DNA of 64,000 nucleotides from Rhynchobatus australiae (lineage: Eukaryota), in contig JAUZTB010000075.1 of the NCBI GenBank assembly GCA_034780895.1, positions 12,974,447 to 13,038,446 on the forward strand, written 5' to 3'. A program made the translations under genes and the position numbers. Numbering within the stretch: position 1 is the stretch's first letter; every line of letters starts with the position of its first letter. The notes below the pieces were generated by a model, which worked only from the letters and a program-made list of their open reading frames with translations, was not told where the DNA came from and ran no database searches. Positions 22,651 through 59,000 of this stretch are shown here, piece by piece.

Positions 22651-22808
22651 GTCAGCTACCACAACTCCCTCAGGATCTCCCAGGACCTCCCAACAAAATG
22701 TGTACAATCCTCCTGATGTTTCTACATGGAACCCATTTGCTGATGACAATTTCTCCAAACTCACTGCAGAGGAGCTACTCAATAAGGACTTTGAAAAGCT
22801 CAAAGATA
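22651..22808 (+). CDS. AAK1: AAK1 exon ~15: [52 protein letters not shown]
   Basis: actcag| acceptor, |gtaagt donor, 158 nt, phase 2->1, WNPF motif. Confidence 0.96.
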
Positions 22809-24805: not shown

Positions 24806-24919
24806 ATAAGGTTGAGAAGACTGATACTGCTACTGAGAGTCTAATGCCAGGGCTTCCATCCACTCAGGTCCAGGTGCAGGCAGATGCTTTTGGAATAGAT
24901 CCCTTTGTCTCTGCGACAG
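24806..24919 (+). CDS. AAK1: AAK1 exon ~16: KVEKTDTATESLMPGLPSTQVQVQADAFGIDPFVSAT
   Basis: ccacag| acceptor, |gttagt donor, 114 nt, phase 1->1. Resembles human ESLIPGFQSTQGDAF. Confidence 0.88.
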
Positions 24920-25363: not shown

Positions 25364-25456
25364 CTGAAAAGTCTTCAGAACTGTTGGTTCCAGATGCTGC
25401 CATCCCGCCAATTAACGTACCCGATCCTTTCACTCCTGTATCATCTGACCCGCCAG
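25364..25456 (+). CDS. AAK1: AAK1 exon ~17: EKSSELLVPDAAIPPINVPDPFTPVSSDPP
   Basis: Long pyrimidine tract plus ctcag|, |gtaaat donor, 93 nt, phase 1->1, DPF motif. Confidence 0.85.
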
Positions 25457-29984: not shown

Positions 29985-30086
29985 AAAAGCTCATAGAAGG
30001 TCTGAAGTCCCCTGAGACTTCATTTCTGCTTCCTGACCTTCTATCTCTTGGTGACCCCTTTGGGAGTACCGAGGATAATATCAATG
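29985..30086 (+). CDS. AAK1: AAK1 exon ~18: [33 protein letters not shown]
   Basis: acacag| acceptor, |gtaaaa donor, 102 nt, phase 1->1, [16 protein letters not shown] motifs. Confidence 0.93.
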
Positions 30087-31465: not shown

Positions 31466-31582
31466 GAAAGTCTGAGATAGTGGTGGGAAATCTCATACCT
31501 GGATTTGAGTCTTCAAAGCCTCAGCAGCTGGCACCACTGCAGGTGGAAGCTTTGGGTGCTGTGGCCGTATTAAATGCTTCAG
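31466..31582 (+). CDS. AAK1: AAK1 exon ~19: KSEIVVGNLIPGFESSKPQQLAPLQVEALGAVAVLNAS
   Basis: caaaag| acceptor, |gttggt donor, 117 nt, phase 1->1. Resembles human EKADVAVESLIPGLE. Confidence 0.82.
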
Positions 31583-33877: not shown

Positions 33878-33988
33878 ATTCTCTCACTGGAGAGGACTCC
33901 ATTCTTGACTACTCTCTCCTCTCTAACCCAGTGACTGAAATTATTGATGAATTTTCTCCTGTAGTTTCATCTGGGCAGGTTAAGCAAG
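33878..33988 (+). CDS. AAK1: AAK1 exon ~20: DSLTGEDSILDYSLLSNPVTEIIDEFSPVVSSGQVKQ
   Basis: gctcag| acceptor, |gtaaga donor, 111 nt, phase 1->1. Confidence 0.93.
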
Positions 33989-36900: not shown

Positions 36901-37380
36901 CAGATAATTCTGGAGGAGGGAGGATTGTTCTTGTTATAAGCCTGCATTGTGCATTTTGTATCTTAAAGTCAGCATTTTAAAAGAAAAGTGGTGAACAAAG
37001 TGCACAGAAGTTGTTGCTCATTACATGAGGTGGAAGCACGGGAGAGGAACATCAGCAAGTAAAACTGACCTACAAAATCAGTACTTGTCAGCAAATTAGT
37101 CATCACATCATTGACAAGTAACTATAATTTTCTGAAACCAGGAAGGCTTATAAAATAGAGATGAAAACTTTGGTGCACTGTATTGGGCACATTCAAAACT
37201 CTTTTGTTCCATGTCCATTGTATGGTTGGCTCAAGTTTATAGAAGTTTTGTAAATAAATTGCAAAATGTCCTGTTTTCAGGAAATAACTTTCCTCAACTT
37301 AATCCTGCTTTCTGTTAATATTTAACATTTTCTGAAAATCTTGCTTCTTACTGTCCATGCCTCCCTTTTACATGCTGCAG

Positions 37381-37482
37381 AGGAAACTAACCTCATCTCA
37401 GACTTTGATCTTTCTATTAAAAATGACAAAGTGGAAGATGATGAATTTGACCCCATTCCTGTGTTGTCAAAAAATTCTCAAG
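37381..37482 (+). CDS. AAK1: AAK1 exon ~21: [34 protein letters not shown]
   Basis: ctgcag| acceptor, |gtaagg donor, 102 nt, phase 1->1, DEFDPIPVL motif. Confidence 0.92.
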
Positions 37483-38809
37483 GTAAGGTTTCAATTGAAG
37501 CATTTGCTATTGTCTTATCCCAATCACTTTGTTGATATTTTATGCACTTTTCACTAAATCATCATTGACAGGAAGAAAACAATGCAAGCTTCACTTTAGT
37601 AATTCTAATATTTATGAAACCTCCCTCACAACTACACAACACAAATGTTCCAGTCTTAATCTAGCAATTCTGCCTTTTTTGTAGTCATACAGCAGGGAAA
37701 TGGGTCCTTCGGCCTACTAGGTCCACACTGACCATCAAGCACCCAATTAAACTAATCCCGTTTTTTATCCTCCCTGTGTTCCCATAACTCCTCCCAATAG
37801 GTTGGGGTACCCAAAAGGAACCACATTTCCAAAAGAAGGATATGAAGTCTTTTGGATGATAAAATGAATCTAAATGTAAACAAAGCCAGCTGGCCTCTGA
37901 AAATGGCTCTTGTCCAGATGCACCCGTCTTTCAATGTAAATGCTGTTAAGATACTGTTATAATCTGAGCTAGAGTGTGGAATATTGTTGTCATATTATTT
38001 AAATATTCTTGATTCTCTCAATCTTGAAACAGAGCAAAGTCAAATAACTGCTGGCTTCTTCTTTGAACAGCACCTTGAAATAGCAAAAATGATCTTTTTA
38101 TTCAAGTAGCCAATTAATTTAATTGGGCCATGACACTAAGCTGGTTCCATGGGCAAACACAGAGTAGGGAATTATTTTTGTAAGACATTGTGGCCTTTGA
38201 GGTGCAAAGTTGAAGAAAAATGGCATGACATGTTAATCTCGACAGTGCAAGGCTCTGTTTTCATACCTCCGCTGGTTGTTTGGCCTCTTATAAGGCAATC
38301 CTTTCACAAAATTCTTTCACCAAAGAATTTGATTGAGCAGAAGGCATCTAATTCATTAAACACGATGGACTTACTTTGGATGGGATTTCATTTAGTTTCA
38401 AGTGGATTATTTGGAAAGGCTGGTGAGATAGAGCACAGCCAGAAAATTTTTAAATGTTCATTCAATATCGAAGTAGCTTTTTAAATGAAATTTTAAATTT
38501 GTCCACAGAGTGCTGACTTCTAATTGTCTATAATTTCATAACAATCGATTTTCTNNNNNNNNNNNNNNNNNNNNNNNNNNNNNNNNNNNTTCAACATTGC
38601 ATTCTGATCTGTAGTGTCCCACACACTACACAAAAATTCAAGCAACACAGATTTTCAAAACACCAAATATGAAAAGCATGTTCTTTTCTAAAATAATGTC
38701 AAAACCAAATAATACTGAAAGGAATATTTTTTTTTCTTTTTAGCGAATTTCACCTTTTAATAAATTTCGATTTTACTACTGGTTCAAAGAGAAGTCATTC
38801 TTTTAAAAT

Positions 38810-39015
38810 ATCAGACTTAACCCACTGGAGGCTTGAGCTATTAATCCAGGCTGATGCTTCAGTGCAATACTGAGAGAGTATTATATGTTTGAGGAGCAAT
38901 TTTCATATTCAGTGTTAAACTGCCTGTCCTATTAGATGGACATAAAAGATACATTAACCATATTTGAAGAACAGGGTGGATCGGCCAGTATCCTGACCAG
39001 AATTTATCTCAAAAA
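38810..39015 (+). mobile_element. Deu-domain SINE (SacSINE1/AmnSINE1-like)
   Basis: cttgagc...atccaggctga...cagtgcaatactgagagagt...gttaaac...tggacataaaagat...tttgaagaacaggg matches the recalled Deu-domain consensus. Confidence 0.65.
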
Positions 39016-39154
39016 CCTTAAATAGGTGATCTGAATTACATTTATTTTGTGTGGAAGTGTTGTCCACAAACTTAATGTTATGTTCCCCATATTTTGTCAG
39101 TAATGCAGATTGTACTAGGCGTTTCTCTGACTGGGGAAGTCTGTAACAAACATA

Positions 39155-40109
39155 CGGGAAGGATTGGTGTTGGGTTCTTTGTTGTTTGTAATATATAAAT
39201 GACTTGGATGAGAATGTAGGTAGTCTGATCAGTAAATTTGCAGATATGAAAATTGGTGGATTTGTAGATAGCAAAGAGGCTTGTCTAAGAATACAGTAGA
39301 ATATAGATCAGCTGGAAAGTTGGGCAGAGCAGTGGTAGATGGAATTTAATATGGACAAGTGTGAAGTAATGCAATTTGCAAAGTCAAATTCTGGTAGGAC
39401 ATATAGAGTAAATGATGAGGACCTCAGGAGTATTGATGTCCAGAGGGACCCAGGGGTGCAAGTCCATAGCTTGTTGAAAGTGGGACACAAGTGGATGTTA
39501 GTGAAGAAGTCATTTGGTATGCTTGCCTTCATCGGCTGAGGCATTGAGTATAAGAGTTGGGACATCACGTTGCAGCTGTCCAAAACAGTGCAGTACTGTG
39601 TACAGTTCTGGTTGCCACACTACAGGAAGGATGTGCTAGCAATAGAGAGAGTGCAGAAGATATTCACCAGTATAGAATGGAGGGCTTTAGTTATAAGAGA
39701 TTGGATAGGTTAGGTTTATTCTCACTGGAACATAGGAAGCTGAGGGATGACCTTATTAGAAGTTTATATGTAAAAAAAAAATGAGGGACATAGATAGGAT
39801 TGATCATCTTTTTTCCAGGGCATGGGACTGTGGGGCACAGGCTTAAGGTGAGAGGGGAGAAATTTAAAGGAGATCTGAGGGGTACGTTTCCTACACAGAA
39901 AGTGATGGTTATCTGGAAAGTGATGGTAATCTAGCTGCCAGAGGAGGTGGTAGAGACAGATACACTTGAAAGGCATTTGGACAGGTTGTCATATAGGGAA
40001 TGTGTAGAGGTATACAGGCCTAATGCAGGCATATGGGATTAGCGCAGATAGGCATCATGGTCAGCATGGTTGAGTTGGGCAGAAAGGGGACGTTTCTGTG
40101 TGGTACAAT
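39155..40109 (+). mobile_element. CR1 LINE ORF2 3' ~0.95 kb, multiple frameshifts
   Basis: Peptides ISKFADMKIG, MEFNMDKCEVMQF, RLDRLGLFSLEHRKLRDDLI, and the CR1 tail. Confidence 0.88.
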
Positions 40110-41174
40110 NNNNNNNNNNGTACAATTCTGATTCTAAACTGTTCAAAGGCATTTTGTTGTCTGCAAGGCCCCTTGGGTATGTTATGTATAGAATCAGAGG
40201 TGGCAGCATGGGCCAGGCATCAACCTTGCATCCTCTCAAACCAAACTATTGTTGTAATATCTTCACCTGCTTGAACGTATTACTTTGAGTCGAGTACAAT
40301 TTAAATTTTTCACGTTTGCATTGAGAGTGCTGCAACTGACTTTGTCACAGCTTTACACATCTCTCATCCATTCTAAGCTAACATTCTTTTCTGGCAGTAT
40401 AATTTCACTCAGCAGTCAAATCTACTTTGAAATAATCCATGCATTAAATTATTTTATAAAAGTTATTTTATAAAGGCTTTTCTAAAGCCTTCCCTTTGCC
40501 CACTGCCATTATTACATCTTCCAGAGCAGGTGTCTGATATTTATGTGCTGTTTAAAAATAACTATCATGCATCTTTGGAAAAACACATAATTTGGAACAC
40601 AAGCCTTTTATTTAACTGACACCAGCTTCTATATGTATGATACAGTCCTTGGCNNNNNNNNNNNNNNNNNNNNNNNNNNNNNNNNNNNNNNNNNNNNNNN
40701 NNNNNNNNNNNNNNNNNNNNNNNNNNNNNNNNNNNNNNNNNNNNNNNNNNNNNCAGCTTCTATATGTATGATACAGTCCTTGGCCCAAATTTATTTTGGA
40801 AAATGCTCACTTGGAACACAGCTTCCAGTGGAGCTGCTGTTGCAGTACCACAGGAGGATGTAACTATATTATGTTTCAATTTACAAAGGAAAGCTTGCAT
40901 TGTAAAAATAAATCTATAAGGGCAATATAAGGAAATACTGAATCTGTGGCTCTATTTTGTAAAGAAAAAGACGAGTTATTTCTGCAAGTATTGTTATCTC
41001 CCACTGTCTAACCTCAAGAATATAAATGTGCCCTTGAATAATGCCACAGCAGGCCAACTAAAACCTATAGATATTTGCACAGCCTTTTTCACTCATGTAT
41101 ATTCTGCTGTCTTTAAACCTGTGTTGTAAAATCCTGTGCCTCCTGACATAAATCAATTTGTGTTACCCTTCCAG

Positions 41175-41269
41175 GTGGTCATTCTAGAAACAACAGTGGG
41201 AGCTCTGAATCCAGTCTTCCCAACTTAGCTAGGTCTTTACTGCTTGTGGATCAGCTGATAGACCTGTAG
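41175..41269 (+). CDS. AAK1: AAK1 canonical last coding exon: [30 protein letters not shown]
   Basis: ttccag| acceptor, phase 1, TAG at 41267-41269. Near-identical to the recalled human AAK1 C-terminus. Confidence 0.96.
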
Positions 41270-43304
41270 GATGACCCAGCAAGCACGTTAAGTTCAGCAG
41301 CCCTCTGCACCGGCATTTTCATCTCCCTCTGGATTTCCCATTCAACCTGTGACAAGGTTTCACTGACTGAGGAAATAAGTTATATTTTCATTTTGCTATC
41401 TTACCATTGTGTCCTATCTAATGAGCATGACTTGACAATTTTTCCATCTTTGAAATTGATATAATTTTGCCATTTTCAGCAAAACTAGTCTTTTTTTAAG
41501 ACTGTGTCCTTTTCAAAGTAAATTGTGAAAACCTAGAAAGGATAGATGGGCACTAATTTAATTTAAAGAGTGTACAAAACTGAAACAAACAATTGTGGTT
41601 TATTTCCTAGTCCCAACTTTTAAACAAAATGGATTTTGTTTTCTCATACTATTAAATCAATCTCTGTGGAAAAATTAGTGGGGTATGCAATGGGAAAGAT
41701 CATTAGGTCTTTTAGGAATGCTTTCCATTAACAAGTCAAGTCAGTGAAGGCATTGTTGGATACAGGAATGTGATNNNNNNNNNNNNNNNNNNNNNNNNNN
41801 AGTCTTGAGCAATATATGTTGAAAACTAACAGTGTTAGAGTGAGGGATTAATGTGCAATCACTAATTTCAGTATACTATTGACTGTGTCCTTGCTTTGGT
41901 GAAATTATTAGGCACTTGACACTATTAGTCCTTCCGCAGACAAGATCTGTGGATTTAGTTAGATTGAAAAACCTTGAAATGTATTGATCCTGTTTAACGT
42001 GGAAGTAGCTATGGTATGGGCAAATCTGGATTTGATGGATGTTGAAATTCTCTGAAAGTCCAATCTACCCATCCTTGTATTATAGAGAAAGATTACAATC
42101 AACACAGCCTCACTGAGGAAGTTGAAAACAGTTTCTGATGCAATTTTTAAGAAGTATAACAAAGGGCCATCAAATAGGGATTTTTGATGCAGTTGTGGAA
42201 GTTGATATCTGCAGTGTGCATTGGCATGATGTGAAATTTGGATCCAAATAATCCCCCAGTGGAGCCTATTTCTTAACATCATTCAGAATCTTATGAAGAA
42301 ATAGGATTTTTAAATCATTCATAATAGGCAAGAATTTTGGTTCCAACCTTTCTTCCTTGCACTCTTATCTCCAATGGCATGTAGTTTTGTAACATGCATG
42401 GAGTATTCTAAACCTCTTTCTGCAATTGTGACATCCTTGGTCTTCCCTTTCATCAAGTATAGTTCAGATTTTTGGCCGCCTTTGAAGTTGCATTGATTTG
42501 AAGCTAGCCAGCTTTATATTTTAACAATATGTTACTATGTGATTCTTTAAGTTAAGTGGTTTGAAATCAGGCATTATCAGAAAATAACCATACCTTCCAC
42601 TGAATTAAGACTTATTTGCACTGTAATCCAAAAGTGATATGACCTTCTTGTAATTTTTGACACATATTCAATATGTGACTGATCAAATTCACTATGAATT
42701 ATTTGGTTGTGATAAATTGCCCAATTTCTTTCCTGATTACTCACTCACTTTGGAGAGTAGTGTGATGCCACTTTAATTTTGGAGGCTCTTTTGTGGAAGA
42801 TGGTTGGTGTGGTAACTCTAGAGTTTTCAACTGGCAGCCACCAGAGCAGTGAGACTAGATTTCCACACTTCACCTGCTTCTATAATCTGGACACAGATTG
42901 GACTGCTTCTGGAGATCTTTGATTTGGTGTTAACTGTACCTTCACATCAGACAATGTATACTTCTCTCCACGATCTTTTCTCCAGCTCTGATTTTATGAA
43001 CTGGAAGAATTAGAGTTAAAACAGTTCAAGGCGTAATCAGGAAATAATGAAAGATGTGAAACAGAACACAAGTAACAAACTTTTTTTTGAAAATGTTAAC
43101 CAAGGCCTTTAAAGATAGTTTGCATCAAAAGCTTTAAGAACTGGTTATCTGGAGAGAAAAATAGTGATTTGAGATAAAAATGTGAATGGAACTGATAAAA
43201 AAGCAATAAGATTGAAGTAAAAAGAAAGTTAACTTAAAACTGTGATTTTTGAAGAAAAATACAAGGAATGAAATTTAATTTTGGGCAGAACCTGCAGATT
43301 ATTT

Positions 43305-43480
43305 AGACACACGAGACTGCAGATGCTGGAATCTGAAGCAACAAACTATCTGCTGGAGGAACACAACAGGATGAGCAGCATCTGTTTGGGGGGATGGTGA
43401 GAGGTGTAGAACGCAGAAGGAATTGTCAATGTTTTGGGCCAAAATCCTACATCAGGACCTGAATCCTGAGTTCTTCCAGC
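43305..43480. mobile_element. Penelope-like relic with a minus-strand hammerhead-like core
   Basis: acacacgagactgcagatgctggaatctg...tctgctggaggaac...gcagcatctgt; same family as 27690. Confidence 0.55.
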
Positions 43481-43609
43481 CGATTATGGAGCAGATTCGA
43501 TGGGCTGAATGGCCTACTTCTGCCCCTTTGTCTTGTGATCTTGTGATTGTTCGTTGCTGCAGATAACTTGTTCATGAACAGCAATACTCTTGGTATTTCA
43601 ATCAAATAT

Positions 43610-44430
43610 TACAGAATCACAGAATGGTTACAATGTGGCAGGAGATTATATGACCTGTCAAGCCCATACAGGTTCTATGCAAGAACAGTTCAGCAGGTCT
43701 CATTTTCCCACCTTCTCCCCACAACCCTCCAAATTCACTGTAGATACTAATCCGGCTCCCTTTTGAATTCTACACTTGAATTTTCTTCCACTACCAGGTA
43801 ATGCATTCCAAATCCTAACAACATGCTGTGTATTTTTTTTAAATCTTCATGTCACTTTTGATTTTCTTTGACAATCACCTTCATTTCATGTTCCCTAGTT
43901 TTTGATCCTTCTACCAATGAGAACTGTTTCTTTTCCTTGATTCTGTCTACATCCTTCGTGATTTTAGTTACCTGCTGAGTAACCTCTCCTGTTTCAAAAA
44001 GACAACCCCATCTTGACCACTCTGGCCATATAGTTAATGTCTTTCATCTCTGGAATCATTTTAGTTAATCTTTTCTGCACCCTTTCTGAAGCTTTCACAC
44101 CTGGCATCCCAAACCAAAAACAGTTGTGGCCACACTGGTATTTTGCAAAGGCTCATTATGGCTTCCTTGTTCTTGGAGTCCATTGCCTTTGTTTATAAGG
44201 TGTGTGATCTCGTGTGTTTTATTTACCACCTCCTCAACCTGTCCTGCTGTTTTCAGTGAAATAGGCACATTATATCCCCAGATATCTCTGTTTTTGTACC
44301 ATTTTAGAATTGTGCACTCCAGTGTATACTGCCTCCTCTCCTCCTTTCTACTAAAATGTAACAATTCACATTTCTCGACATTTGAGTTCCTCTGCCACCC
44401 ATTTGCACATCCTACCAGCCTGTCTAATCT
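43610..44430 (-). mobile_element. Degenerate CR1 LINE ORF2 3' part
   Basis: Minus-strand peptide LQRLDRLVGCANGWQRNSNVEKCELLHF. Confidence 0.78.
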
Positions 44431-45861
44431 TTGCAGTAGTGTAGGGGAAATTATGTTGAAAGCCAAAGATGAATGGAAAAGCATGAAGAGGGGTTGCATT
44501 ACTGAAGTTGGTGTTTGGAAGACTGAACAGGTGATCAACTTGAAACATCTAACGTAATAATGGAATCTAATAGTCAGTAGTCAAAAGCAATCAAGTTCCC
44601 GGTTTCCTTGTGTTCTACCTCACTGGCCTCCACTTTCAAAAGATCATGATTTTGTAACCTCCAGTATGATGTCACTGCTAAATAGACTTCGGTATGGAAG
44701 AGCTGAAACCTTTTTCCTCTCCATGTACACTACTTGATCTGATGAATATTTCTACCATCCTCTGTTTTTATGTGAGGTTTGGAAGTACGTGACTTTTTAA
44801 AAAAATTTTGTCCTTGACCTTATTAGTACTTAACGTGCCCACCCATCCTGGCTCAAACCTGAGAAAGAACATGGTTTTGGAGTGTTCAGGGCCCACACTG
44901 ATGACTTAGTCTTGATGTTTGTACAGATCACCCACACTTAGCTGTAGAGCACAATAAGTAGTTGAAGTGAAAGAATGCTGTGGTGGTCGGTTCCCAGTGC
45001 AATGCTTCAGTTTTGTCCTTGGAGTCATGGCTCACCCAGTGGGATTATTCTCAAGGCCACTGATTTAAACTTATGAATGTTGCAACCCTATATACCAACA
45101 GGAATCAGCTGTAATAAAGGGAATGACTTTTTGGTCACTAAAAATCAGGAACTCCAATAAATGGATGGAATTGCAGAATTCAATAGCTCAAATCCCCAGA
45201 ATTTGAGAATTCTGTTTGATAAATTTAATATAGTCTGATGCAGTAAATTAGTGTATTTGATTATATTTGCATTAGTGACTTCTGTCAACAAATTTTATGG
45301 TTGAAGCAAGACAGTAAATGAATGTGTGAAAACAATATTTCAGTTGTATCCAGTCTACTTAATGACTCTCAACATCTCGGCAAATTTAAATTTAGAGAAG
45401 TGACCTCTTGTTGGCTGCTTTAAATGTGCAAGAAATGACAGATTAGCTGACCTCAACACATCCACAGTATTGAATAATGAAAATGTCAGTGATGAGACTG
45501 TTTTTCATTTGCCAATAAATATACTTCAAAGTTGGATTTCTGTCAGCAATTTAGTGTAATATGAAATGGCATTATGAAATGGAATTCTGTATTTGGTTCA
45601 TGAATCCGTCCAGAAACTGAAAAATTGAAAAGGTGGATGAGTGTTTAGAGGAAAAAAAAATCCCCCTTAAATTTATCTTGTTTATATTCTGTATCTTGAG
45701 CGTGAAAGGTAGGTACATCTGTACTGAGTATTTAAAGTAACATAAGCTCTTGCATTGTTTGCATTTGCAGTCACTTCTTTATTTGTTGCAAACATTCAAT
45801 ACTCTGTGCAAATAACATGTGTATCATTTCCTCGCAACTCCTTTCAGTAGAATTTCATGTA

Positions 45862-46281
45862 CAGGCTGTCCCCTGGTTAAGAACGCCTGACTTATTGCCA
45901 TCCCAACCTATGAAAGGACTCCCATNNNNNNNNNNNNNNNNNNNNNNNNNNNNNNNNNNNNNNNNNNNNNNNNNNNNNNNNNNNNNNNNNNNNNNNNNNN
46001 NNNNNNNNNNNNNNNNNNNNNNNNNGCCATCCCAACCTATGAAAGGACTCCCATAATATTAAATTCAAAAGTCCTTCATACATACATGCATTCATTCCTA
46101 CAAATGGCAGAACTAGTTTCCTCTCTTATCAGTCTTAACTGCTTTAGATGTCACTCATTACAATACTGTGGAGGTACAGTTACCATATTGAGTGACGTTT
46201 GTGTATTTGCCGACTTATGCACAAAATCGACTAATGGACATCTATAAAAGCGGAACCTGTTCATTACCCCAGGATAGCCTG
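45862..46281. mobile_element. Tigger/pogo-like MITE (non-autonomous DNA transposon)
   Basis: TA|caggctgtcccctggttaagaac ... gttcattaccccaggatagcctg|TA: 23-bp TIRs matching at 17/23 positions, with TA target duplication. Confidence 0.75.
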
Positions 46282-49009
46282 TAGTGGTAATGCTCTGAGA
46301 TAACCTAACTAAGCATGACGTTACATTTATCGAGGCCAAATGTTATTTGCCTTTCTGTGATCTAGTAAAGTGGTGAGCTTCATCCCTTTGTTTTAGCTTT
46401 TGTCCCTCCTACTATCTCAAACTTCTGAGATTTACTGATCATATTGGGACTGATCCCTGAAGGACATCACCATTATGTTTGACGATTTCAGCCATTTCCT
46501 AAATCAGCATAACAAATCCCAACTCTTTCACCAAGGATTCAGCTAATGAAATAACCTAAAGTGTGAGGCTTCATCTCAGTGCAATAATATATTACCAGAT
46601 TTTGCTCATGAAGTAAACAAACTACTTCTTTAAGATATAATTTGTGTTGATAAGACAAAACCTTTTCCAGAAGCATCTCTAACGGCTTCCTCTCTTCGCA
46701 AATAATTCACCGGCATCTCTTAAGTTTGCCCATTGGTCCTGTAGTATAAGAATATTTACGTGTCTTGTGTAAGAATGATGAAGGAAATGGGTTTTTCCTG
46801 ATGTTCTTGTCAAGACCAAGTTAGCCAATGTCATGGCAGGAGTTCCTATTAACCATCTCCATTTGCCTATGTATTGTACACTGCATATAATACACATAGT
46901 GTATTGATCTATCATTGGGAAAGAACAGATAAGTGGTGTGTTCATGAATGGTATACTCTACATGTGCGCTGTTCGTGCCAGTTTGAAATCCAAAATAAAT
47001 TTAGCATTGAATATCCCATCTGGCATATGTATGACATCCTCTCCAATATCTGCTCCTTTTTTTCTGTATCGGATTTTAATGATTCTACTAGTATAGCAGT
47101 TGCCTCTTTCAACTGTCCTTATCACCCACCTCTTTACACTGCCTCCTCCCAGGCTATTGGATGACTCTGAAATATATATCAATTATACAGTGCAAGTTGT
47201 GAATATATTTTCAGCATTTGTGAGTAGTGAAGTAAGATGTATCAAAAATTATAAACTCTATGCTATAAATTTACATCCTAAATTCACTTTGATGCATTCT
47301 GCTATTTCAGACTTTTCAGAATTAATTTCTGCACCACTTTCTTCATACCAATTGTAAATATATGGTGTTTTCTGTCTGTCAAATCTTAATTAGTTTATTA
47401 AAAAAAAAGTAGTATGCAAAAAAATTAATGGTCAAAATTGGACATTACAAAGAAAATGTACTTTAAGTTTAACAGTGTCTCATGTAATTTGAACCATGCT
47501 TTGACAGGGAAGATGATGTAGCTGAAATCTGTGAAAATGACTTCCAACCTTTACACTTAATGCTGATTTTGCAAGACAACAGGTTCAAAGCCTGTTTGCC
47601 CTTGCAGTGCACCAAATGCTGCATTTGTCAGATCAGGCCGGTAATACCAATACGCGTTGATGTACAGCACTGCTGCACAATATGCCTGCTGATCTGTGTA
47701 GTGGCACTGTTAAAATAAGTGATAATGGATTTTATCCACAATGTGTTATGTGGAACAAAGGCTTGCATTGGCCTTGTTGCTGTCCTGACGTAAATGGATT
47801 TTCCTCCTGGCCTCACTGTTGTGGGCTGCAGCCAAATCACCCTGGCCATCCAACTGCTGTCAGTCCGAATATCCCATGTGCCAAACGCTGCCACTGCAAG
47901 GGTAAATTTGTTAAGAAAATTCTCAACCATGAACCAGTGCTTACATATTTCTATTTCCTCCTATGCAATGCATTGCATTTCACCAACTCCCTTTCCCAGC
48001 AACAGAGGACAAGCTGAAAAGGAAACAGGGTGTTGCTCAAAATCTCACTGTTGGCAGGTCCACAGAGCAACGCTGATATTGGCGCACCCCTGAGCTCCTA
48101 CCAGCTGGCACACTAAATTCCAAAGCAGCCCACCACATTGAAATGACAGGAACTTGGAGATCAAAATATATATCAATGGAAAGTATGTTGTACATTTGTT
48201 CTGTTTTAATATGAAAAGCCTCCTGCTGGAGATCATTCCCGTAATGAAAAATTCCTGAAGAATGAGTTTCTAATGTAACAGTATCCAGATAGCTTTGTTC
48301 TATAGCTATTTGGTGCATTTTTTTTCAGTTCAGAATACAAGCTTGTACCATTTCATGTTTGTATTATTTTGTTTCAATGATTAATGAATTTCCTGCTATG
48401 ATTATTTACATTCCTTCAAACACTGCGCAAAGCTGCATTTTTCTTGTTACCAATAATGTCGGTCTTGTTGTAACCTCAAGTCTTATCTTTGTAACCTGTA
48501 CTTAACTCCTTGTTCCTTTTGCTTCCAACAGAACTAATTCTGCTTTTCCGTTTCCCAATTGAGATAATGTACATTTGAACTGCCTGTAAAAATGCTGTCT
48601 CTTCACTCTGGGGTTGATGCGTCACCAACCTATGCAACCTGTGTTACTGTCGTTTCTAATCATTGTGGGTTAACAAGTAGGTTTCTTAAAGATCAGTCTT
48701 TTTTCCCTTTTTGGTTTTATATTCATACAAGTAAAAATATACAATTGTGAGTTGTTATTCCAGCTGCAGTATTGTGCAATTCTAGTGTAATGTGATGTCT
48801 GTTGTTACAAGCACTTTTCAAAACCTAAACCAAGGGAGGTGCTGTGGTTTAATTAAATTTTAAAAAATGGTTTCATTTAAAGGGTCTACCAAGATCAGTG
48901 CAAGAACCAACTCTACACTGGTTTTGTAACAAAACTAGGGCAGCAATTATATAACTGCTTCAAGAGGCTTTGATTTGCTTTGATTTTACTGTGATTTTCA
49001 AAGCTTCAG

Positions 49010-49011
<2 letters not shown>

Positions 49012-49051
<40 letters not shown>
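49012..49051. repeat. (TC)20 microsatellite
   Basis: Direct reading. Confidence 0.95.
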
Positions 49052-49057
<6 letters not shown>

Positions 49058-49660
49058 TCTCACACTCACATGCACTCATGCATAGAGGCTATGTGTTCTA
49101 TTTCACTCCCCACGAATGCTGCTTCTGTAATCTCCAATTCAGGCATTTAGAGTGCACCTTATTTGGTTATCTTTTTTTTTCCCCCTCTGGGGATTTGTTT
49201 CTGTTTTAATGCTTCCTAAGTGTGTAAGCTATCACACACATGGTGTGACACTGCCAGGCAAAATCCCCATCCTGTGTTAAGTATATTTTCAGAAGTAGCG
49301 GAGGCGCAACTGCGTAATATGTGATCTCACCCCCACCCCTCCCAACTTCTCAGATTCCATCGTGGCCTTCTGGCCAAGACTCAATTTTGCTGTAAAAACT
49401 GAAGGCTTGTGTAAACCCCCTAAAGGAGAGATGCTCCAGCTTCTAGTTTCTGCAATCAGAACACATATTGGCATGCTTTTTAGTAGTTTGCATTAAATGG
49501 TGCAGGAGAGTGAATGTTTGCAGCATTATTGAGCAGAGTAAAGCTACAAATCAAAGCAGAGTATTTTTGTACAGATTCTAGTGTCTAAAGGGGGGTCTTG
49601 CTGATGACGACGTTGTATCTATACTTCACATTGTAATGTATCCAAGTGATTCATTTTCCC

Positions 49661-49740
49661 AATAAATAATGTTTTGATGCATATATCTTAAAATAAATCT
49701 TGTATCGTGTTTTAATCTCCTTTCTTGATTATCTTTGCTG
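49661..49740 (+). promoter_or_regulatory. Candidate polyadenylation site for the proximal (canonical) last exon
   Basis: AATAAA at 49661 and 49692, upstream TGTA motifs, downstream GT/T-rich tract. Confidence 0.4.
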
Positions 49741-49949
49741 ATGCCCCCAGCTGCTGAAGTTCCTCGGTAATGAGCTTGTATATGTGCCTCTGTTCATCTG
49801 TTCAACTTCTGGGATGAGCTAGCCTTGAAGTGGCAATAGAGTTGAACTATTGAAGCTGACATAAGAAGCAATAGATTCATTTCAATCACTTGGGTTGAGA
49901 AAAATAAAAACCTGGTACTTGATGATGCAGAATTGAAGGGGTTCTTTGG

Positions 49950-50160
49950 TAATTGGTTTATTATTATCACCTGTACTGAGGTACAGTGAAAAGCTTTTCT
50001 TTGCATGCCATCCAGGCAGATCATTCTATAAGTAAGTACGTAGAGGTATACAAAAGGAAAACAAAACAGAATGCAGAATATAGTGTTACAGTTACAGAGA
50101 AAGTGCAGTGCAGGCAGACAAAGTGCAAGGGCCATGACGAGGTAGACTGAGAGATCTAGA
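49950..50160 (-). mobile_element. Rex1/L2-like LINE 3' UTR fragment
   Basis: Homologous to 28575-28755 (aattggtttattatt...ggtacagtgaaaagct...ttacagttacagagaaagtgcag). Confidence 0.75.
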
Positions 50161-52009
50161 GTGCACGTGCATCACGCTGGTCTAGTCAACAATAAGTGCT
50201 TTGATTTACACCTGAACTGCAGCTGGCCCCTGACCTGGTTTAAGTGCAAACCAGAACTATGTTCCTGGTACAGAACAAACTGCAATTACAGTCAAAACAC
50301 AGCTAAAGCTATCTTGAGCACACACAGATTTGGCAGATCAGGGCACAGTTCTGAGAACCAGCTTTGAGTCTGGAAAGATGAGTTAAATGTTTCTTCATTA
50401 CTTGCAATAGTCCCTCAGAAGAAATGGACCAGGCATCTCACCCAGTTTCCAAATGCCTTTGTGTCACAACACAAAGCTTAGAGTGATAGACAATTCCATT
50501 TAGAGGCTGGTCTGGAATGGGTAGAAATGTCACAGTCGTGCAGTTCTTGGTATCCCCTTGATGGTGGAGTTAAACGCCACCAGGATCAAAAGAGATAAGT
50601 TTTATTTTGAATTTTAGCAGTGTTGATTGAAGGTGGCTGACACAGGGCAAACTAGGTAAGGGAGATGTGGCCACAAGAGGGAAACTGGAAGCTTTATGAC
50701 TCACATGACCTTAACTTTTGAATTCTGCAGAAATTTAATCAAGAGAATTGTTTTACTTTTAAACAGGCAAAAGTGTGCTTTTCAGCTTTACTGATGTAAA
50801 TGCATGATGGAATTTGGGGCATGAATGATATTGGGAAAATCATGTTACAAAATCAAAAGGGGAGAAATTAAGCTAAGAACTAAATAATTTGTTTCTAAGC
50901 TGTACTAAACTGTGTCTGAACTTTTCTGCAAATGCAACTGGAAGTTGGCAGAAATGACATTTAAAACATAATGATACTTCTGCTAAGGTAAGATTTTTTT
51001 AAGTGCTTTTCTAGAGCCTTAATACATAAAAATTAATCCCATTTGCTGCATCTTAGATTGATGATTCTGATTCCTGTAAGACCAGTTATTTTTGTGGCAT
51101 TTATGATTACCTTTTAGTCATTCTTCGCTGTTTATATCTGTTGCAGCTGATGCAATGAATCAGCATTTGGTGAGATTTATATTTTAAGAGTTCAATACAT
51201 GGATTAAGTCTGTAATCTTGAATTTTAATTTAAATCCACAAGCCGAAGGGTTTTTACACTAAGAATGCAAACTGCCAGTAATGTTACTTGGGATTTAACG
51301 TTTTGTGCATACTGAAATGTGACATTCAGTAGCACCATAGAACTTTAAGGAGCAATGGACTTGTGTATAATGTTCTAAACCTTTTAATGTCTTGTTGGAA
51401 GATTCAGTATTCATTGCACATTGGGCATGAATCTGCATGCGTTATGAGCTGTCTATATCAATCCATGTGATGTGAAACTGCTTTCATTTGTATATTTTCA
51501 TAGAAATAGCAGCTTCCACAATTAAGATATGCAATGAATAAAATTATATCCCAATAGGGAGCAATTTCCAATTGACCTGGTTTGTATGGGTAATAAAACG
51601 CTTGTAAAGTTTAAGAGCTACAGGACTGATGAGGCAAATTGGCATTTCATTTTTTTAAAAAAAAGTGCGAGGTGTAATTGGTAAAATTAAACATGCTGAT
51701 TTCATGTTGTGAAAAACTAAATTTAAAGCATTTTCACCACATGTCAGCATTAAGTGGATGCAATGAGAACAGCAAATGCTGGAAATGCAGAGCAGCTCTG
51801 CCAGCATCAAAGAGAAAGTAATTTGCTGTTTCAAATGCCAATGCCCTATCAGCCTTGCTTCACAGACTACAACTGAAACGTTAACCAGTCACCTCCCAAC
51901 TTCCACTTACAATACCTGCCAGGTTCAACCTTGGGTGATAACCACTTGTGTATTTCAAGAATTCTCTTTCAGACTTCCAGCATTCACTTTCCTTTTCATC
52001 TGGACCTGA

Positions 52010-52262
52010 CGATCTCTTGGNNNNNNNNNNNNNNNNNNNNNNNNNNNNNNNNNNNNNNNNNNNNNNNNNNNNNNNNNNNNNNNNNNNNNNNNNNNNNNNN
52101 NNNNNNNNNNNNNNNNNNNNGAACAGCCCGTAGATCAGAGAATCCTCTGTTACGCAGCTGCTGGGGATGAACCGGGACAAGGACCCCTGCATCTTTCGCC
52201 ACACCCTCTTCGCAAACCCACACTCCACAAAGAGGTGGGCGACCGTCTCGTCCCCCGCGCAG
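52010..52262 (-). mobile_element. Tx1/L1-like LINE ORF2 C-terminal zinc-binding fragment
   Basis: Peptide CAGDETVAHLFVECGFAKRVW (C..ET..HLF..C...VW, zf-RVT motif); locally CpG-rich. Confidence 0.75.
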
Positions 52263-54975
52263 TGATTACAAGGTTTTCCTAGAGATGGGGGAACATGCTG
52301 CAAAGGAAGTATAGATTTATTTCCTTCCACCTCAGCAAGGATTGCCATTTGCTTTCCCCTTCACAATATGCCAGTTTAGTAAAGACTACTTGGCCATTCA
52401 CATCTCCATTGGATGAGAGTTGTTAATTACAGGTCTTAGCCAGGTTACAACAGGGTTTTGTTCCTATTCATAACCTGAACAGTTTGAAAGTCAGAAATGA
52501 GGTTGCCTGGTATTATATTTAAATGAAAACATAGGCCAACCAAAGACCTGCAGTTAAGCCAGGGCATTTTACTCAGCCATTCAGGTATTGCTCTGAACTG
52601 AATTCCCACCCGGCAGAGGATGCCTGTAGCTCTGCAGCAGTTGGCAAGTCCATCCCGCCGGTCCCCCAAACGCTTGTTCATGTACAGGCTATACATAAAT
52701 TGGGCATTCATAAGCTGGGGAGGACCTGTAATTAGTTTTTGACCACTTCTAACCAGTCAGCCCAGCAACTGCTGTTAGTGAGCAAAAATGGAAGTGCTTT
52801 GGGGAAAGGGCAGAGGAATGAGACATTGAATTGCTTGGTTAAGAGCTGGCACAGACCTGTAGGCTGCATTGCCCTCCTTCTTGTGCTGCTATAATTCCAT
52901 GAGACATAATTATTTGTTGAAAAATACCAGCTGACTCCTTAGTCAGTATTTTAACAAAAAGTAGGCAATGGCTTGTTGGCACAAGTGCAGAGCAGAGTTT
53001 ATGGGAGGTCATGGGCTGGGAAGTCATAGAGTCATACAGCACGGGAAAAGGCCCTTTGACTCATCAAGTCCACGCCAACCATCAAGAACCCAACCACAGC
53101 AACCCCACTAGCCCCCAACTCCCAATGCTAGACTTTTCACCAATTTATTAAACAGAAGATTGTTCCATAAAGCTGTGCAGTTTCTTGGCCATTGTGCTTT
53201 TAAGCATTTAATTGTAGGATCATCTCTTGATCTATCCTTATTTCCATGTGTATAATCGACTGACCAACAGATTCCATTTTAATACAAGGGTTTCAGTTTC
53301 TGACATTTCCATGGGAATCATGTTGCAGAACCAGATAATCAGTGAAGTAAATTTAAAACAAAGATGCGGGAATTCTTAAATAGTTGTGGGGAATGGAGCA
53401 CATGTTGAAGGAAGAGCATTCTCCCTCTTCAGCCAGCCTTTGGTCCCTGCTGGGATCATCCTCATTGATCACTGGTGTGGGATCATTGCTGTTAGGTCAT
53501 TTTCGTTGTTCAGGTGATCTGGGATTGTCTTTTGTAGACTGGTCAGCAGGTTTCCCTCATTGTTCATTCTAACTAGAATCCCAGTTCAGTTTTCACTGGT
53601 CTTTAATTCGCTCTGGAATCCTTGTTGCGATTTTCCTTGTCATTCAATGATCCTATGATCAGTGTAGCAATGCTGTGGTCTCTGATTTTAATCAACAAGA
53701 ATTTCTGGAGCATGTATCTAAAGAGTCCTGTAGCTGTTGGATTTTACATGCAATACTTACTGAGGTTGCAGACTCAGCTTTTGATGTTGTACACTTCAGA
53801 CACCTAACCCTTGAAATGCTTAATTCCTTGTTGCTGCTGAAGCCCTAGAGGTGTTTTGGTTACTGTGGCTGAGCTTACATGTAGCATGACAATCCCCTTG
53901 CTTTCCAATAGCAAAAGCAACATGTGGTCTGATGATGGATAACATACAATAGCTGTACCTTGGCATCTTTTTATGTTGCTCCTTATCCTCTGAACCCTTC
54001 TCCTGGCATGGCATATTTTGGAAACCAAAGATACGAGATGTCCTCAAGTACTTGAAAGCTCAAAAATAGTGGAATTGATACTCCATTAAAAGCATTTTGT
54101 ATTCAACTCATATTGCTTTTGCAGCAAGGCTTGTTCAGTGAAAAAGGAAAAACTGTTCAGTGCAGATCCTGAGTGGCCTAATTGATTAAGCAGCCAAAGC
54201 TTGAAGGGAATTGCCCCCAGTGTGTGGGTGGTTGGAGAAATCAAAGCGGTGTTGATGGACATTTGACAAAGAATAGATTACAGTGAAATGTGGGTGAATG
54301 GGATTTATGCGTTTGCTCTAAAAACCAGCATAGACTCAAAGGGCTGAATGGCCTCTATGAAATGAGAAAATATGAAAACATCACCGACCCTCTGCCATTA
54401 AAACCCTCAGCATTGCCTTCTCTTTGGAGAAGTTTATGAAACTGCTTTGAGGTTTGAGTTCTAAGCATCTGTTTCAGGGGAAAAGGAGCAACAATGAGTA
54501 ACCCTCAGCTGTCAAAGTACAGCTGAATACTTTAGTCTGTCTCTGCTTCCTTCTGTCTGTCTCTATCTCTGGATTCATCCGCAAATTAAGAGAATGTATA
54601 ATTTGTTCAGAAACAACCTCAGGGTGAAATTGTTAAGTTGTTTCAAATGGACTTCCTTTCGACATGACAACACAGTCTTAAAGACTTGCCTTTTACACAT
54701 CCTACCATTTGCATTACATGTGCCTGAGTGCTTTCAGAAACTGGGCTTTCACTGGACTGAAAGGTATACTGGGTGTGGGTGAAAGTCAAGTGCACATTGT
54801 TGTGGCAGTGTAAAGTTCACCACAACAGGCTCCACAGTCTTGCTGAAAATTGTAGGATTTAATTGGGGACTTATGCAAACACACTCTGCCATTGAATCAA
54901 TATACAAAGCCAGCGGAGTTCAGGGAGTGCAGCATCTCTGACAGAGAGGATTAATCAGCTCTTGTTCTGTTCCAG

Positions 54976-56094
54976 GTTTCCCAAGAGATGCATCTGGCCT
55001 TTGTGTGGAGCAGTTCCAGTCATCTGCCAATAATGCCCCTGTTTTCTCTGGGATTGGCAAGTCTAAGGGGCCCGATGCTGAGAGTGTGAATTGGCCTAAC
55101 CCTACCAGCCGGAGTTCAGTGCACAGCAGTGACGAAGATTGTATTGAGGATGGTGGCGACCTCCTCGACAGTAGTGGCCACAGACCTCTCCTGTTGGATT
55201 CCGAAGAGGACGAGGATCCCAACAAACCCCAGAACTTGGTGAGCCATTCAGGAGAGATGGTAGAAGGACAGCTTAATCTTGACTGTTCAGGTGGGGCAGA
55301 CCTGCTGGAACAGCCACCCAAGCTCCACACAGAAAAGGGTGAGGAAACAGCAAGTGAGGCAGACGTGTTCTCTGCCGCTCCCTTCAAGAACACGAGGGCC
55401 ACTGAAACGGTGCAGGGTGCCGTTGATGTTTTTACCAAGGCTCCATTTAAAGTAAAAATGAATGCTGCTAGAAATCAAACTGAGGACACTGATGTCTTCG
55501 CAAGGGCACCGTTTTCAAAAAAGAAAACGCTGGCAACTTTGGAAGAGACAGTTGTGTGCTCACCGGTCCCAGAAGTACCCGAAGAGACATCTACTCAATC
55601 CCAGTTTGGAGGTGTTGCTCCAGACACCAATCAGATTTTTCAAAGTATGTTCCCTGGTTTTCAGGACTCGTGTGCTGGATCATCTGGTGGAGTCCAGCAC
55701 AGGGCTGCACCTTTCACAGCTGGCAACCTGCAAGATTCCATGGAAGCAAAGTCTAACCGAGAAGGAGACCCAATGAAGAGTTGCAGTAATTCCCAGACTC
55801 ACCAAATGCAAACCCCCAGCACTTTGCGAGCTCAAGAGNNNNNNNNNNTTGCTGCCTTCAGGGAGCTCCCAACCCTTTCATCCTCGCGCATTATCCAAGT
55901 ACTCCCGTCACTTCAAAGAAGAGGAGTGGCAGGGTCAGCTGCCCAATGCCTACGCAGTCGGTCCTGATATAATACAGGGGGCGCGAGGAGCCACTAACCC
56001 TGCCTCTCTGCACCCAAGGACTTCCCAAGTGCATGGGGCAGATCCGTTTGCTGCAGCTCCCTTTCCTACTAAATCCAGAAATCAGAAACCTTAA
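54976..56094 (+). CDS. AAK1: Alternative distal last exon of AAK1, about 370 aa, BMP2K-C-terminal-like tail (frame broken only by a 10-N gap)
   Basis: gttccag| acceptor is in phase 1 and in frame with the 320-aa ORF. Motifs HRPLLLDSEEDE, DVFSAAPF, DVFTKAPF, DVFARAPF. After the gap: ALSKYSRHF...DPFAAAPFPTKSRNQKP* (TAA 56092-56094). Confidence 0.85.
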
Positions 56095-59000
56095 CTTGCA
56101 ACCTGAATGGAAGTCAGAGATGGAGAGGGGTCTGGGTGGGAGCGGGACGGGTCCGCGGGTGGGGGAGGGGCGGGGGCAATGCAGCATCAGTTGAAATTGC
56201 AGTATCTCACTTTAACGCGCGGCCAGTTAAGGACAATGGGTCTTTTCCCTGTCACTTCAACAAAACTGTATCAACTTGTTACAATATCAAATCTCAGGCC
56301 TTGACTCTGCAAATGATCTCTGGCATTCAGGTCTACATGAGGCATAGTCCAACACAGTGACCACCTTGTCAAAGTACAAATTGGTTTGGGATTATATTAC
56401 AAATTCGGCTGAAGTGGTTCAGCTTTTCCCAGCCTCCGAGATGCACAAGAAGATGGGAAGTGCATCACCAGAGCAGGGAAAGGTCAGAAGTTCCTCTTTG
56501 TTTGCAGCAGAGATCTGTAAGGACTCTAGCCTTAGTTATGTTGAATGCCAGAACTTACCTCAAGCTGTTTGCAAAAGTCAAAAACTGGGATAACCAAAAA
56601 TCCACCAGAGAAGTGTTGTCCATTGCAGTGTTCACTAGTCCCACCGATTAGTCTCCATGTCAGTATGATTTTATTTTAAAACTGCATTGAATGTGTAAAT
56701 TTAAAACACAACCATGCAACAAAATTTTATTAAGCTGCCTAATTTGTAAATTGAAAGAAAAATGCAACTTAGCAGTGCCTTTTTAAAACTAATTTCTTTC
56801 CAAGGATTGAACATGTGCATTGAATTGGGATACTGCAACATGCAGAGTGGCACTGTACCAGCTACTGTACAGTGCTGCCCTCCAGAGGTGTGGAGTGTGG
56901 TTTATAGTGGCACTGTGTGCAGTGTAACCCTCTTTTAATGCACAATGGTCACAAGTTAGTGCTACAATCAGATTCCTTTGCTTACTGAGTAGTTCCAGAC
57001 AATGATATTCAAGTTGACCTCAGCTTGCATGATACCTTCATTTGAGTATTTGAGTGACTCTACTTAAGATCTCCATTTCTTGCAGTAGACAGAAGTAACC
57101 CTTTTGGAGGTCTGAATTAATTAATTTGCACCATGAATTGTCATGATTACCAAGATTTACCAGAAATGGTATAGTTAATGGAAGAAACACATGACCACTC
57201 CGTTCAATTGTTAGTGTACGGTCCTGTACACTGATCACTCCATTCAATTATCTGTGCAGAATGCTGTACATTAAGAGTAATCTCGAGTTGCACACTTATT
57301 AAAGTGATTTAAACAACATTTGATGTTAGATTTATTTTCCATGAATCATTATTCCGTAAGCCTGCATGAACTTGATTGTTGTCCATTGCAACCAAAACAA
57401 TGGCTTCTACCTCAGTGCTTGCTCTGGGGCAGTCACTGAGAGGAGAGGAATTAACATGTTAGTGGAAGGAAAGAAACTAATCCTGGCTGGTTCAGAAAGG
57501 GAGGTTGGGGCACGGTGCAGACGAGAGAAAAGGAAAATGTTTCCTGCAAGCTCCCTGAGATATCTGAATACACTGGCCGTGAAACTGGCAAAAATTGTTA
57601 GGATGCTGCTAAAAGAAATTGCCAAACAAAATAGATAACTTTTGTATCTTCACACCTATTGAGCTTTTTTTTAAATTACAGCCATCTAAAATTCAATGAT
57701 CTTTTAATTCTAAAGAAAAGTTTCTTGGCTTCTTGTCTTGCTTTCTCTAGCTGCTGGGATTCTGCCACGATTGAAGGTGTGTTCTGCCTTCATAAAATGA
57801 AGAATTCTTTCAAATCAGTGCAATCATTTTATGAAAATCTAGAACTGTGGGCTTTAAAAAATATCCAACAGATCCTAATTCAACCAAAATTGCTCAAGGA
57901 AATGAAGGGATATCTGTGTTGGAAGCAAAGGAGTGGCTGTTGGGTAAGAGATGATTTTACAATGTTGCAAGGGACCTATCAAAACTGGAAGAGTGGGAGA
58001 TCTATTACTAGTTGAGTGAGTCAGTGATGTTTCTGTCTGCTTGTAGCCTGGTGTTGAGGAAGGTGGCCTCTTCAACCAGGTTTCCAACCTGTAATACCTG
58101 CAGAAAAAACTGTGAAAGCTTGAAAGAAAAATGAAAATACTTGAAATGAACCAGAAAATATTTAAATACCCAGCAGGTCAGGCAGCATCTGAAGAGGAGA
58201 GGTAGTAATTATTTCAAATGAATAAGTTAATTGGAACTTGGAAAATGTTAGAGAGCAAGTTTTAAGATGCAGGAGCAAGGGGAGAACAGAACAAAAGGAA
58301 AGTCAACTACAGTGGAAGGTAGGAGATATTAAACAAGAAAAGGTATGGTAGTGCATGGCAATGGGGTAGCAATAAAACACCAGTGATGGTTCTTCATATC
58401 CAAATGGGCAAGGCAGAGCCATTATAAAAAAAAATAGTACTGCAAAATTTACAACCAGTCTGAAGAATATTATTGCCCCATGTGCTGTAGCTCATAAGAT
58501 GACTTGAACTTTGCATCTACCAGATGTCACATGTAATTTACCGCTCTATTAAAGTGAAAATTGTATTGATGTTGAAATGTCTCCACTCCAACTGAAAGTT
58601 GATTTTTAATACAAGGTGCCCTCATTATCAACTGTTTACACTTCAAATCAAAGTCAATGCATGTAGCTTGAAAAATATTTTTTTTGTGTGGATCATCTCT
58701 GCTCATAAAAATTTTCTCCAATCATGATGAATAAGGCATTACTTTTATGTAATACGTTTCCTCAAATACTGGCTATAAAATGGTCCTCAGATTACTCAAT
58801 GGCTCCAGTTAAAGAGAACAACATTCTCTTTGTACATTATGAATAAGAATAATGATCTTAAGTTTTATTGCACAAAACTAAATGATTCCACAACACTAGT
58901 AAGCAGCCATGAAAGGAATAAAGGAATTTTACATTTGGAGAGAAAAGAGCACCAGATGTATCCAGAAAATTGTCAGTAACAAAAGCTGGTCATTCAGACC

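Follow-up and report, generated by a model that had tools for sequence, protein, structure and literature searches.

The question raised by this locus is whether the AAK1 gene of the ray Rhynchobatus australiae has a second, much longer 3' end and, if so, what that end encodes, how old it is, and what it does to the kinase. The window, that is, the whole 64,000-nucleotide stretch of DNA analysed here, contains most of the ray AAK1 gene, which is here more than 50 kb long and whose exons are mostly 87-100% identical to those of sawfish (Pristis) AAK1. The segment 54976..56094 is, almost beyond doubt, a real and spliced phase-1 alternative last exon of this gene. Because this exon is already annotated in RefSeq and in Ensembl (ENST00000606389) and has been named in print, it is not a discovery; what it offers, instead, is a prediction that can be tested at little cost and the likelihood that the two tails of AAK1 evolved in the reverse of the order hitherto assumed.

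Seven exons with phase-1 donors precede the alternative ends, all on the forward strand. E1, the WNPF exon (22651..22808), and E2, with one DxFxxxPF motif (24806..24919), are the counterparts of the WNPF exon and the penultimate exon of BMP2K, respectively. They are followed by five phase 1-1 cassette exons, E3 (25364..25456), E4 (29985..30086), E5 (31466..31582), E6 (33878..33988), and E7, the DEFDP exon (37381..37482). E2-E7 are six successive phase 1-1 exons that are freely combined in annotated isoforms, so that the motifs preceding either tail differ between isoforms. In the short, 'canonical' last exon, the coding part (41175..41269, forward strand) specifies 31 amino acids counting the split codon, ends in LIDL, and is 100% identical to sawfish isoform X4. 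A 3' UTR of ~8.4 kb appears to follow at 41270..49700 on the same strand, with AATAAA at 49661 and 49692 as the likely poly(A) signals. The long last exon starts 13.7 kb beyond the TAG of the short one (41269), as the preliminary description had stated; its coding part of about 370 amino acids extends, again on the forward strand, from 54976 to a TAA at 56092-56094, and a probable 3' UTR (56095..58400, forward strand, its end extrapolated) contains the candidate signals ATTAAA (58328) and AATAAA (58371). The exon for sawfish residues ~588-658, the TPPSSP/GHRRILSDV region of AAK1, was not found in the window; it is expected between 20217 and 22651, where it likely falls in the 100-N run at 21905-22004. 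NFU1-like exons lie ~32 kb past the long exon on the same strand (contig C75), and, beside this locus downstream of AAK1, there is a further NFU1-like locus on another contig (G000:C77:6933671-6935561).

The preliminary description, made from the letters of the window, had proposed a terminal exon that lacks an upstream ATG, opens at a clean acceptor, and shares its phase with the canonical last exon and the seven donors. All this holds: a pyrimidine-rich AG directly precedes 54976; phase 1 is common to the long exon, the short last exon, and all seven donors (22808, 24919, 25456, 30086, 31582, 33988, and 37482); and the first in-frame ATG, at 55257, is already past the RPLL motif. The tail consists of an acidic SSDE/RPLLxDSEE block, three DVFxxAPF repeats, a QAL-SKYSRH block, and a DPFxxAPF close to the end, and the claimed motifs are located at the expected places, with HRPLLLDSEEDE at 55179, DVFxxAPF at 55362, 55425, and 55491, AAPF near 55704, and DPFAAAPF at 56041. 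Two details need correction. The tail, called acidic, is only mildly so overall (D+E 13%, as measured on the sawfish tail), and DPFAAAPFPTK is not strictly terminal, as six more residues follow 'FPTK' before the end of the protein. None of the 10,000 shuffled versions of the sawfish tail contained even two DxFxxxPF motifs, against four observed, so these motifs are not a product of chance, and all four are kept in each of the seven jawed-vertebrate AAK1 sequences checked. They are spaced by 21-22 residues and the last one alone is DPF; the tandem, close DPFxxDPF that characterizes FCHO ligands of the EPS15 type is not found in the long tail. A comparison with solved structures yielded none similar to the tail, the two matches both being at chance level, and the tail looks like a disordered region with short motifs. 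Among the profile matches, many short, teleost-looking tails (P0442-P0462, of which P0448 bears the name of a kinase from an arowana) no longer have the RPLL or the YSRH block but retain two to four DxFxxxPF motifs together with the end block, which points to the latter elements as the core of the tail.

Orthologues support the assignment of this exon to AAK1. A syntenic homologue in other vertebrates had been predicted, and the tail is, indeed, an annotated AAK1 C-terminus from sharks to mammals: RefSeq gives it as such in rays, sharks, teleosts, a frog, reptiles, birds, and mammals. The 5' part of the exon matches 91 longer proteins, each of which includes a kinase domain; AAK1 isoforms from rays, sharks, birds, lizards, a frog, and a pipefish are among them. 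Of the 91, 82 carry NCBI, UniRef, or EukProt names, mostly of AAK1 isoforms, and nine come from Logan only. The latter are encoded by contigs of 4.0-6.6 kb that include both the kinase and the tail, and, given that the gene exceeds 50 kb, we infer that these contigs are spliced transcripts. Overall, the kinase and the long tail occur in a single protein in 210 of the 331 proteins compared, and mammalian full-length long isoforms carry the same tail among the 120 matches listed of 1,774.

That the two last exons are mutually exclusive, as originally suggested, is borne out by the cartilaginous fishes, where, of the 82 isoforms from 11 species, 62 have the long tail and 20 the LIDL tail, no isoform combines the two, and both kinds are found in 10 of the 11 species, although the exons were labelled by pattern match and the records are mostly automated gene models rather than independent counts. 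The donors fared less uniformly. The proposed junction from E7 (37482) into 54976 appears in just five of the 62 cartilaginous long isoforms, all five from one skate, Amblyraja, whereas upstream donors are used in most, the usual entry in these models being from E1, E2, E3, E5, or E6. In contrast, the junction between E7, the DEFDP exon, and the long exon is present in 77 of the 177 long isoforms of other vertebrates (11 of the 177 are unclassified). In the cartilaginous isoforms, E7 is placed before the short tail in 11 of 20 cases and before the long tail in five of 62, which suggests that inclusion of E7 is coupled to the choice of the last exon.

Sequencing runs add transcript evidence of an indirect kind. 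Sixteen runs are listed as carrying the long exon, none of the sixteen on record as RNA. Run X4 derives from a relative that is ~95% identical and is flagged as probably DNA. Among the joints listed for four runs on 36900-56700, a table dominated by repeats and with 913 more joints beyond it, none leads into 54976, a point against the reading favoured here. In run X4, E7 and the short exon are covered at equal depth and the adjoining intron bin is near zero. Pieces from this run tile 41173-49593 with short breaks at depths of 62-213, then fall, ending just before the AATAAA signals at 49661 and 49692; the 3' UTR of the short isoform (41270-49700) is ~95% conserved in this related ray. The contig with the long exon starts at 54918, 58 nt upstream of the acceptor and inside the intron, and its depth is ~10, compared to 62-213 for the short UTR, contig depth being a poor measure of expression. 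An X4 contig aligns at 56231-56680 and continues for 1,628 letters beyond the compared stretch. Altogether, the X4 pattern fits a spliced short form with an 8.4-kb UTR and a second terminal exon.

The resemblance of the tail to the C-terminus of BMP2K, pointed out in the preliminary description, is supported by comparison with the BMP2K tail of the same genome (23% identity, E 2e-9, with a shared order of the opening motifs). In the same-genome BMP2K (L002-L005), a WNPF exon and a DxFxxxPF exon, each with a phase-1 donor, come before a last exon of 464 amino acids that is likewise in phase 1, and the E1-E2-long isoform of AAK1 has the same exon layout, phases, and motif order. Against PF15282 (BMP2K_C), with its cut-off of 27 bits, the two fragments in the window score 22.2 and 25.1; the intact orthologues score 27.1 in sawfish, 91.6 in chicken, 213.8 in human, and 20.3 in sevengill shark, and the pipefish has no match. 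A protein atlas search without PF15282 gave no usable match.

The long exon exchanges the 31-residue LIDL tail for a BMP2K-like tail of about 370 residues, and we consider it likely that this tail tethers the kinase to AP-2 and clathrin-coated pits. Sequence and orthologue annotation show that any phase-1 donor can be spliced either to 41175, giving the short form, or to 54976, giving the long form, and because each last exon ends in a stop codon, a given protein has a single tail. The short form would be cleaved near 49.7 kb, so that, for the long form to be made, both the 41175 acceptor and this poly(A) site would have to be skipped; the choice of splice site and poly(A) site would then pick the tail, within a gene structure that is shown and by means of regulation that is presumed. 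The four conserved DxFxxxPF motifs might provide for weak multivalent binding to AP-2 appendages, by extension from BMP2K, the C-terminus of which is reported to contain nine DXFXXXPF motifs, to pull down AP-2, and to help coated-pit targeting (10.1101/870899). Given that the BMP2K C-terminus binds AP-2, binding of AP-2 by the AAK1 long tail is, by analogy, likely. In the same account, the BMP2K tail binds AP-2 and clathrin more weakly than EPS15, and FCHO is not bound (10.1101/870899). The LIDL end binds the PDZ domain of PDLIM5 and aids migration, according to PMC13346677, from which it follows that the long form, without a C-terminal LIDL, would lose PDLIM5 binding. The preliminary description had called the short tail a clathrin-box tail; it is a demonstrated PDZ ligand for PDLIM5, and its peptide pulls down clathrin as well (PMC13346677). 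In the open-access literature, we found no functional study of the long AAK1 isoform, nor one that compares the functions of the two forms; subscription papers and supplements may hold one.

By the same analogy with BMP2K, the main rival to AP-2 pits is a secretory or autophagy role, whereby the long isoform would be real and ancestral but minor, and its motifs and RPLL block would serve another route, such as ER-exit-site or autophagy trafficking. There is something to be said for this possibility: BMP2K-L and BMP2K-S, as described in PMC7473771, regulate SEC16A/COPII assemblies and autophagy beyond the phosphorylation of AP-2, the YSRH block is specific to AAK1, with no ligand found described in the literature covered, and the low depth of the long exon in run X4 would be expected of a minor form, poor as this measure of expression is. 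Nevertheless, BMP2K-L is located mainly near the plasma membrane with EPS15R (PMC7473771), and the BMP2K C-terminus adds to coated-pit targeting and binds AP-2 (10.1101/870899), so we regard such another route as unlikely and favour tethering to coated pits.

The two tails probably did not arise in the order in which they lie along the gene. The long tail is, with high probability, ancestral to the short one, judging from the phase, upstream exons, and motif order that it shares with BMP2K and from the tails of hagfish and lamprey: a profile search recovered a hagfish AAK1-like protein and a lamprey protein, both of which contain DxFxxxPF repeats together with a YSRH block of the AAK1 type. 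In its kinase, the hagfish protein is as close to AAK1s (76-79%) as to the single BMP2K tested (78%), a point against this assignment. An alternative is that AAK1 acquired its long tail from BMP2K after the duplication, by exon shuffling or gene conversion, and that the short tail is the older one, as the location of the long exon, a long way past a last exon that is itself complete and strongly conserved, might lead one to think. We reject this scenario as very improbable, with only 23% identity to the same-genome BMP2K tail, an AAK1-type tail already present in cyclostome proteins, an E1-E2-last exon order with phases equal to those of BMP2K, and an origin of LIDL that has been placed in jawed vertebrates (PMC13346677). 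The gene of the vertebrate ancestor from which AAK1 and BMP2K descend would thus have ended in the long exon, and E3-E7 and the PDZ-binding short exon were apparently inserted later, within the last intron of jawed-vertebrate AAK1. The description of the tail as that of the ancestral NAK is supported back to the vertebrate ancestor but not further, because no invertebrate tail was identified among the 10 matches that were named, all vertebrate, out of the 43 in the profile search. A statement that the long tail is ancestral was not found in the open-access literature; subscription papers and supplements may hold one. The coelacanth BMP2K last exon is annotated alone as a 'BMP-2-inducible kinase-like protein', the same splitting as that of FLJ45252.

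FLJ45252 is the human face of this exon. The preliminary description had named this orphan protein, and rightly so: the orthologous human exon is FLJ45252/Q6ZSR9, and a partial human AAK1 record carries the tail. One could still hold that FLJ45252 is an independent gene with its own start, into which AAK1 reads through only sometimes, considering that 'uncharacterized protein FLJ45252' figures as a stand-alone model in many genome annotations (these models carry the same tail family, among the 120 matches listed of 164) and that the X4 contig begins 58 nt before the acceptor with no loose end. This possibility is largely refuted and retains very little probability in our estimate. In this ray, there is no ATG before the conserved RPLL block, and the start methionine of the 355-aa stand-alone model is found in one of eight mammalian sequences, being leucine in human, apes, and macaque; in other words, the search for a conserved start codon upstream of the conserved motifs, which had been named as a refutation test of the exon, did not find one. 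The locus AC114772.1 we take to be the AAK1 long exon. In a reported 'fusion', validated by qRT-PCR, the edge of an AAK1 exon is joined to AC114772.1, which lies 39 kb downstream (PMC5132003). Further traces of the exon in the literature include FLJ45252, classed as 'non-kinase', among the targets of 30 kinase inhibitors (PMC10967794), Q6ZSR9 as staurosporine-responsive in an isothermal shift assay (10.1101/584656), FLJ45252 as a putative AAK1 isoform in a preprint that credits Huang 2018 (10.64898/2026.07.30.741759), and one A0A096LP25 peptide in platelet proteomics (PMC13578961). Table 1 of PMC3317806 has an unexplained 'AAK1A' entry.

A 2026 paper (PMC13346677), the supplement of which names the 1163-aa long isoform (A0A096LP25, ENST00000606389.8), also speaks against an independent gene. 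All four Q6ZSR9 phosphopeptides in Supplementary Data 2 map to the human long tail; tail peptides thus exist in human and are phosphorylated. The guide used in that work hits AAK1 exon 2, and the antibody is against the AAK1 N-terminus; the sheets are unlabelled and appear to be knockout-type and N-terminal pull-down-type comparisons. The logFC values of Q6ZSR9 and AAK1 are, respectively, +5.47 and +5.83 in sheet 1, +8.67 and +6.2 and +8.2 in sheet 3, and -6.41 and -5.85 in sheet 6, where BMP2K is at +0.12; neither shows a change in sheets 4 and 7, and in sheet 2, AAK1 is at -4.06 and no row for Q6ZSR9 was found. Q6ZSR9 thus apparently follows the loss of AAK1, in addition to turning up among kinase-inhibitor targets. 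Two observations in RPE cells count against an endocytic role of the long form: one peptide is unique to it, whereas the 961-aa form has eight (PMC13346677, Suppl. Fig. 9 legend), and BMP2K, not AAK1, is described as the main endocytic kinase there (PMC13346677). The serines of the acidic SS(D/E)E and (D/E)SEE motifs (55110-55220 in the window) are invariant or nearly so. The human peptides that cover them are phosphorylated and barely change in a table where other AAK1 phosphosites drop 8- to 30-fold (PMC13346677), which hints at another kinase.

The long exon of this ray is interrupted in the assembly. The claim that it is the longest open reading frame holds for the longest stop-to-stop frame of the window (341 codons) but not for a single frame through to 56094: the 5' frame runs into a stop at 55965, and DPFAAAPF is encoded in the +1 frame after the 10-N run at 55839..55848, where orthologues have one codon. 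Sawfish AAK1 (91% identical), as well as the skate and shark orthologues, aligns on both sides of this run with a single residue across it, and the contig of the related ray from run X4 (54918-56128) has seven gap letters at the same place, which makes it very likely that the shift is an artefact of an assembly gap and that the frame of the tail is intact; with one codon filling the run, the tail has 370 amino acids, the same length as in sawfish. A true frameshift at 55839-55848 that truncates the tail in this ray is scarcely credible and was rejected: the frame does differ on either side of the N run, but both flanks, the part after the break included, are 89-90% identical to sawfish in their own frames, and the window has 22 N runs, of which four have the duplicated flanks typical of scaffold gaps and among which lengths of exactly 10 or 100 recur. 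The same-genome BMP2K last exon (L002, G000:C64) also has an N run, with the frame kept.

Taken together with the reported functions of the LIDL end, these findings allow a bolder suggestion, offered tentatively as a possibility about which we remain rather doubtful, namely, that the cell regulates the choice of the last exon and thereby switches AAK1 from an ancestral coated-pit kinase similar to BMP2K-L, for which the long exon is the original end, to a PDZ-anchored focal-adhesion kinase of jawed vertebrates, or back. If this is so, the way in which AAK1 and BMP2K are reported to divide their labour would hold for the 961-aa isoform only, and knockout rescue with the 961-aa cDNA would miss an endocytic AAK1 that is possibly dominant in other tissues. 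AAK1 is a drug target, and the recent functional work considered here uses the 961-aa cDNA; should the long tail redirect the kinase, isoform choice would alter its substrates, and the 'orphan' FLJ45252 entries in proteomics and drug-target lists would be AAK1.

Compared to known systems, the closest counterpart is the human AAK1 long isoform, which has the same set and order of motifs (RPLL, three DxFxxAPF, YSRH, DPFxxAPF) and the same position in place of the LIDL exon, but only ~30% identity to the ray tail outside the motifs, along with the more frequent use of the DEFDP exon before the tail outside cartilaginous fishes. The long C-terminus of BMP2K/BIKE is similar in its phase-1 long last exon after the WNPF and DxFxxxPF exons, the acidic RPLL block, the DxFxxxPF repeats, and a DPFxAAPF near the end; it differs from the AAK1 tail in length (464 versus 370 amino acids), in the number of motifs (seven versus four), and in a basic LQKLSSRQRR region where AAK1 has the YSRH block, and it is AAK1 that has E3-E7 and a competing short last exon. 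AAK1L of Henderson and Conner is presumably the 961-aa LIDL form, that is, the short tail here and not the long exon. As a C-terminally extended AAK1 splice form with extra low-affinity motifs, AAK1L nonetheless resembles the arrangement described here (Henderson & Conner 2007, via the review PMC10653628). Finally, in the BMP2K-L/S splice system, as presented in PMC7473771, a single NAK gene likewise gives rise to long- and short-tail kinases by splicing; unlike in that system, the short tail of AAK1 is a conserved PDZ ligand.
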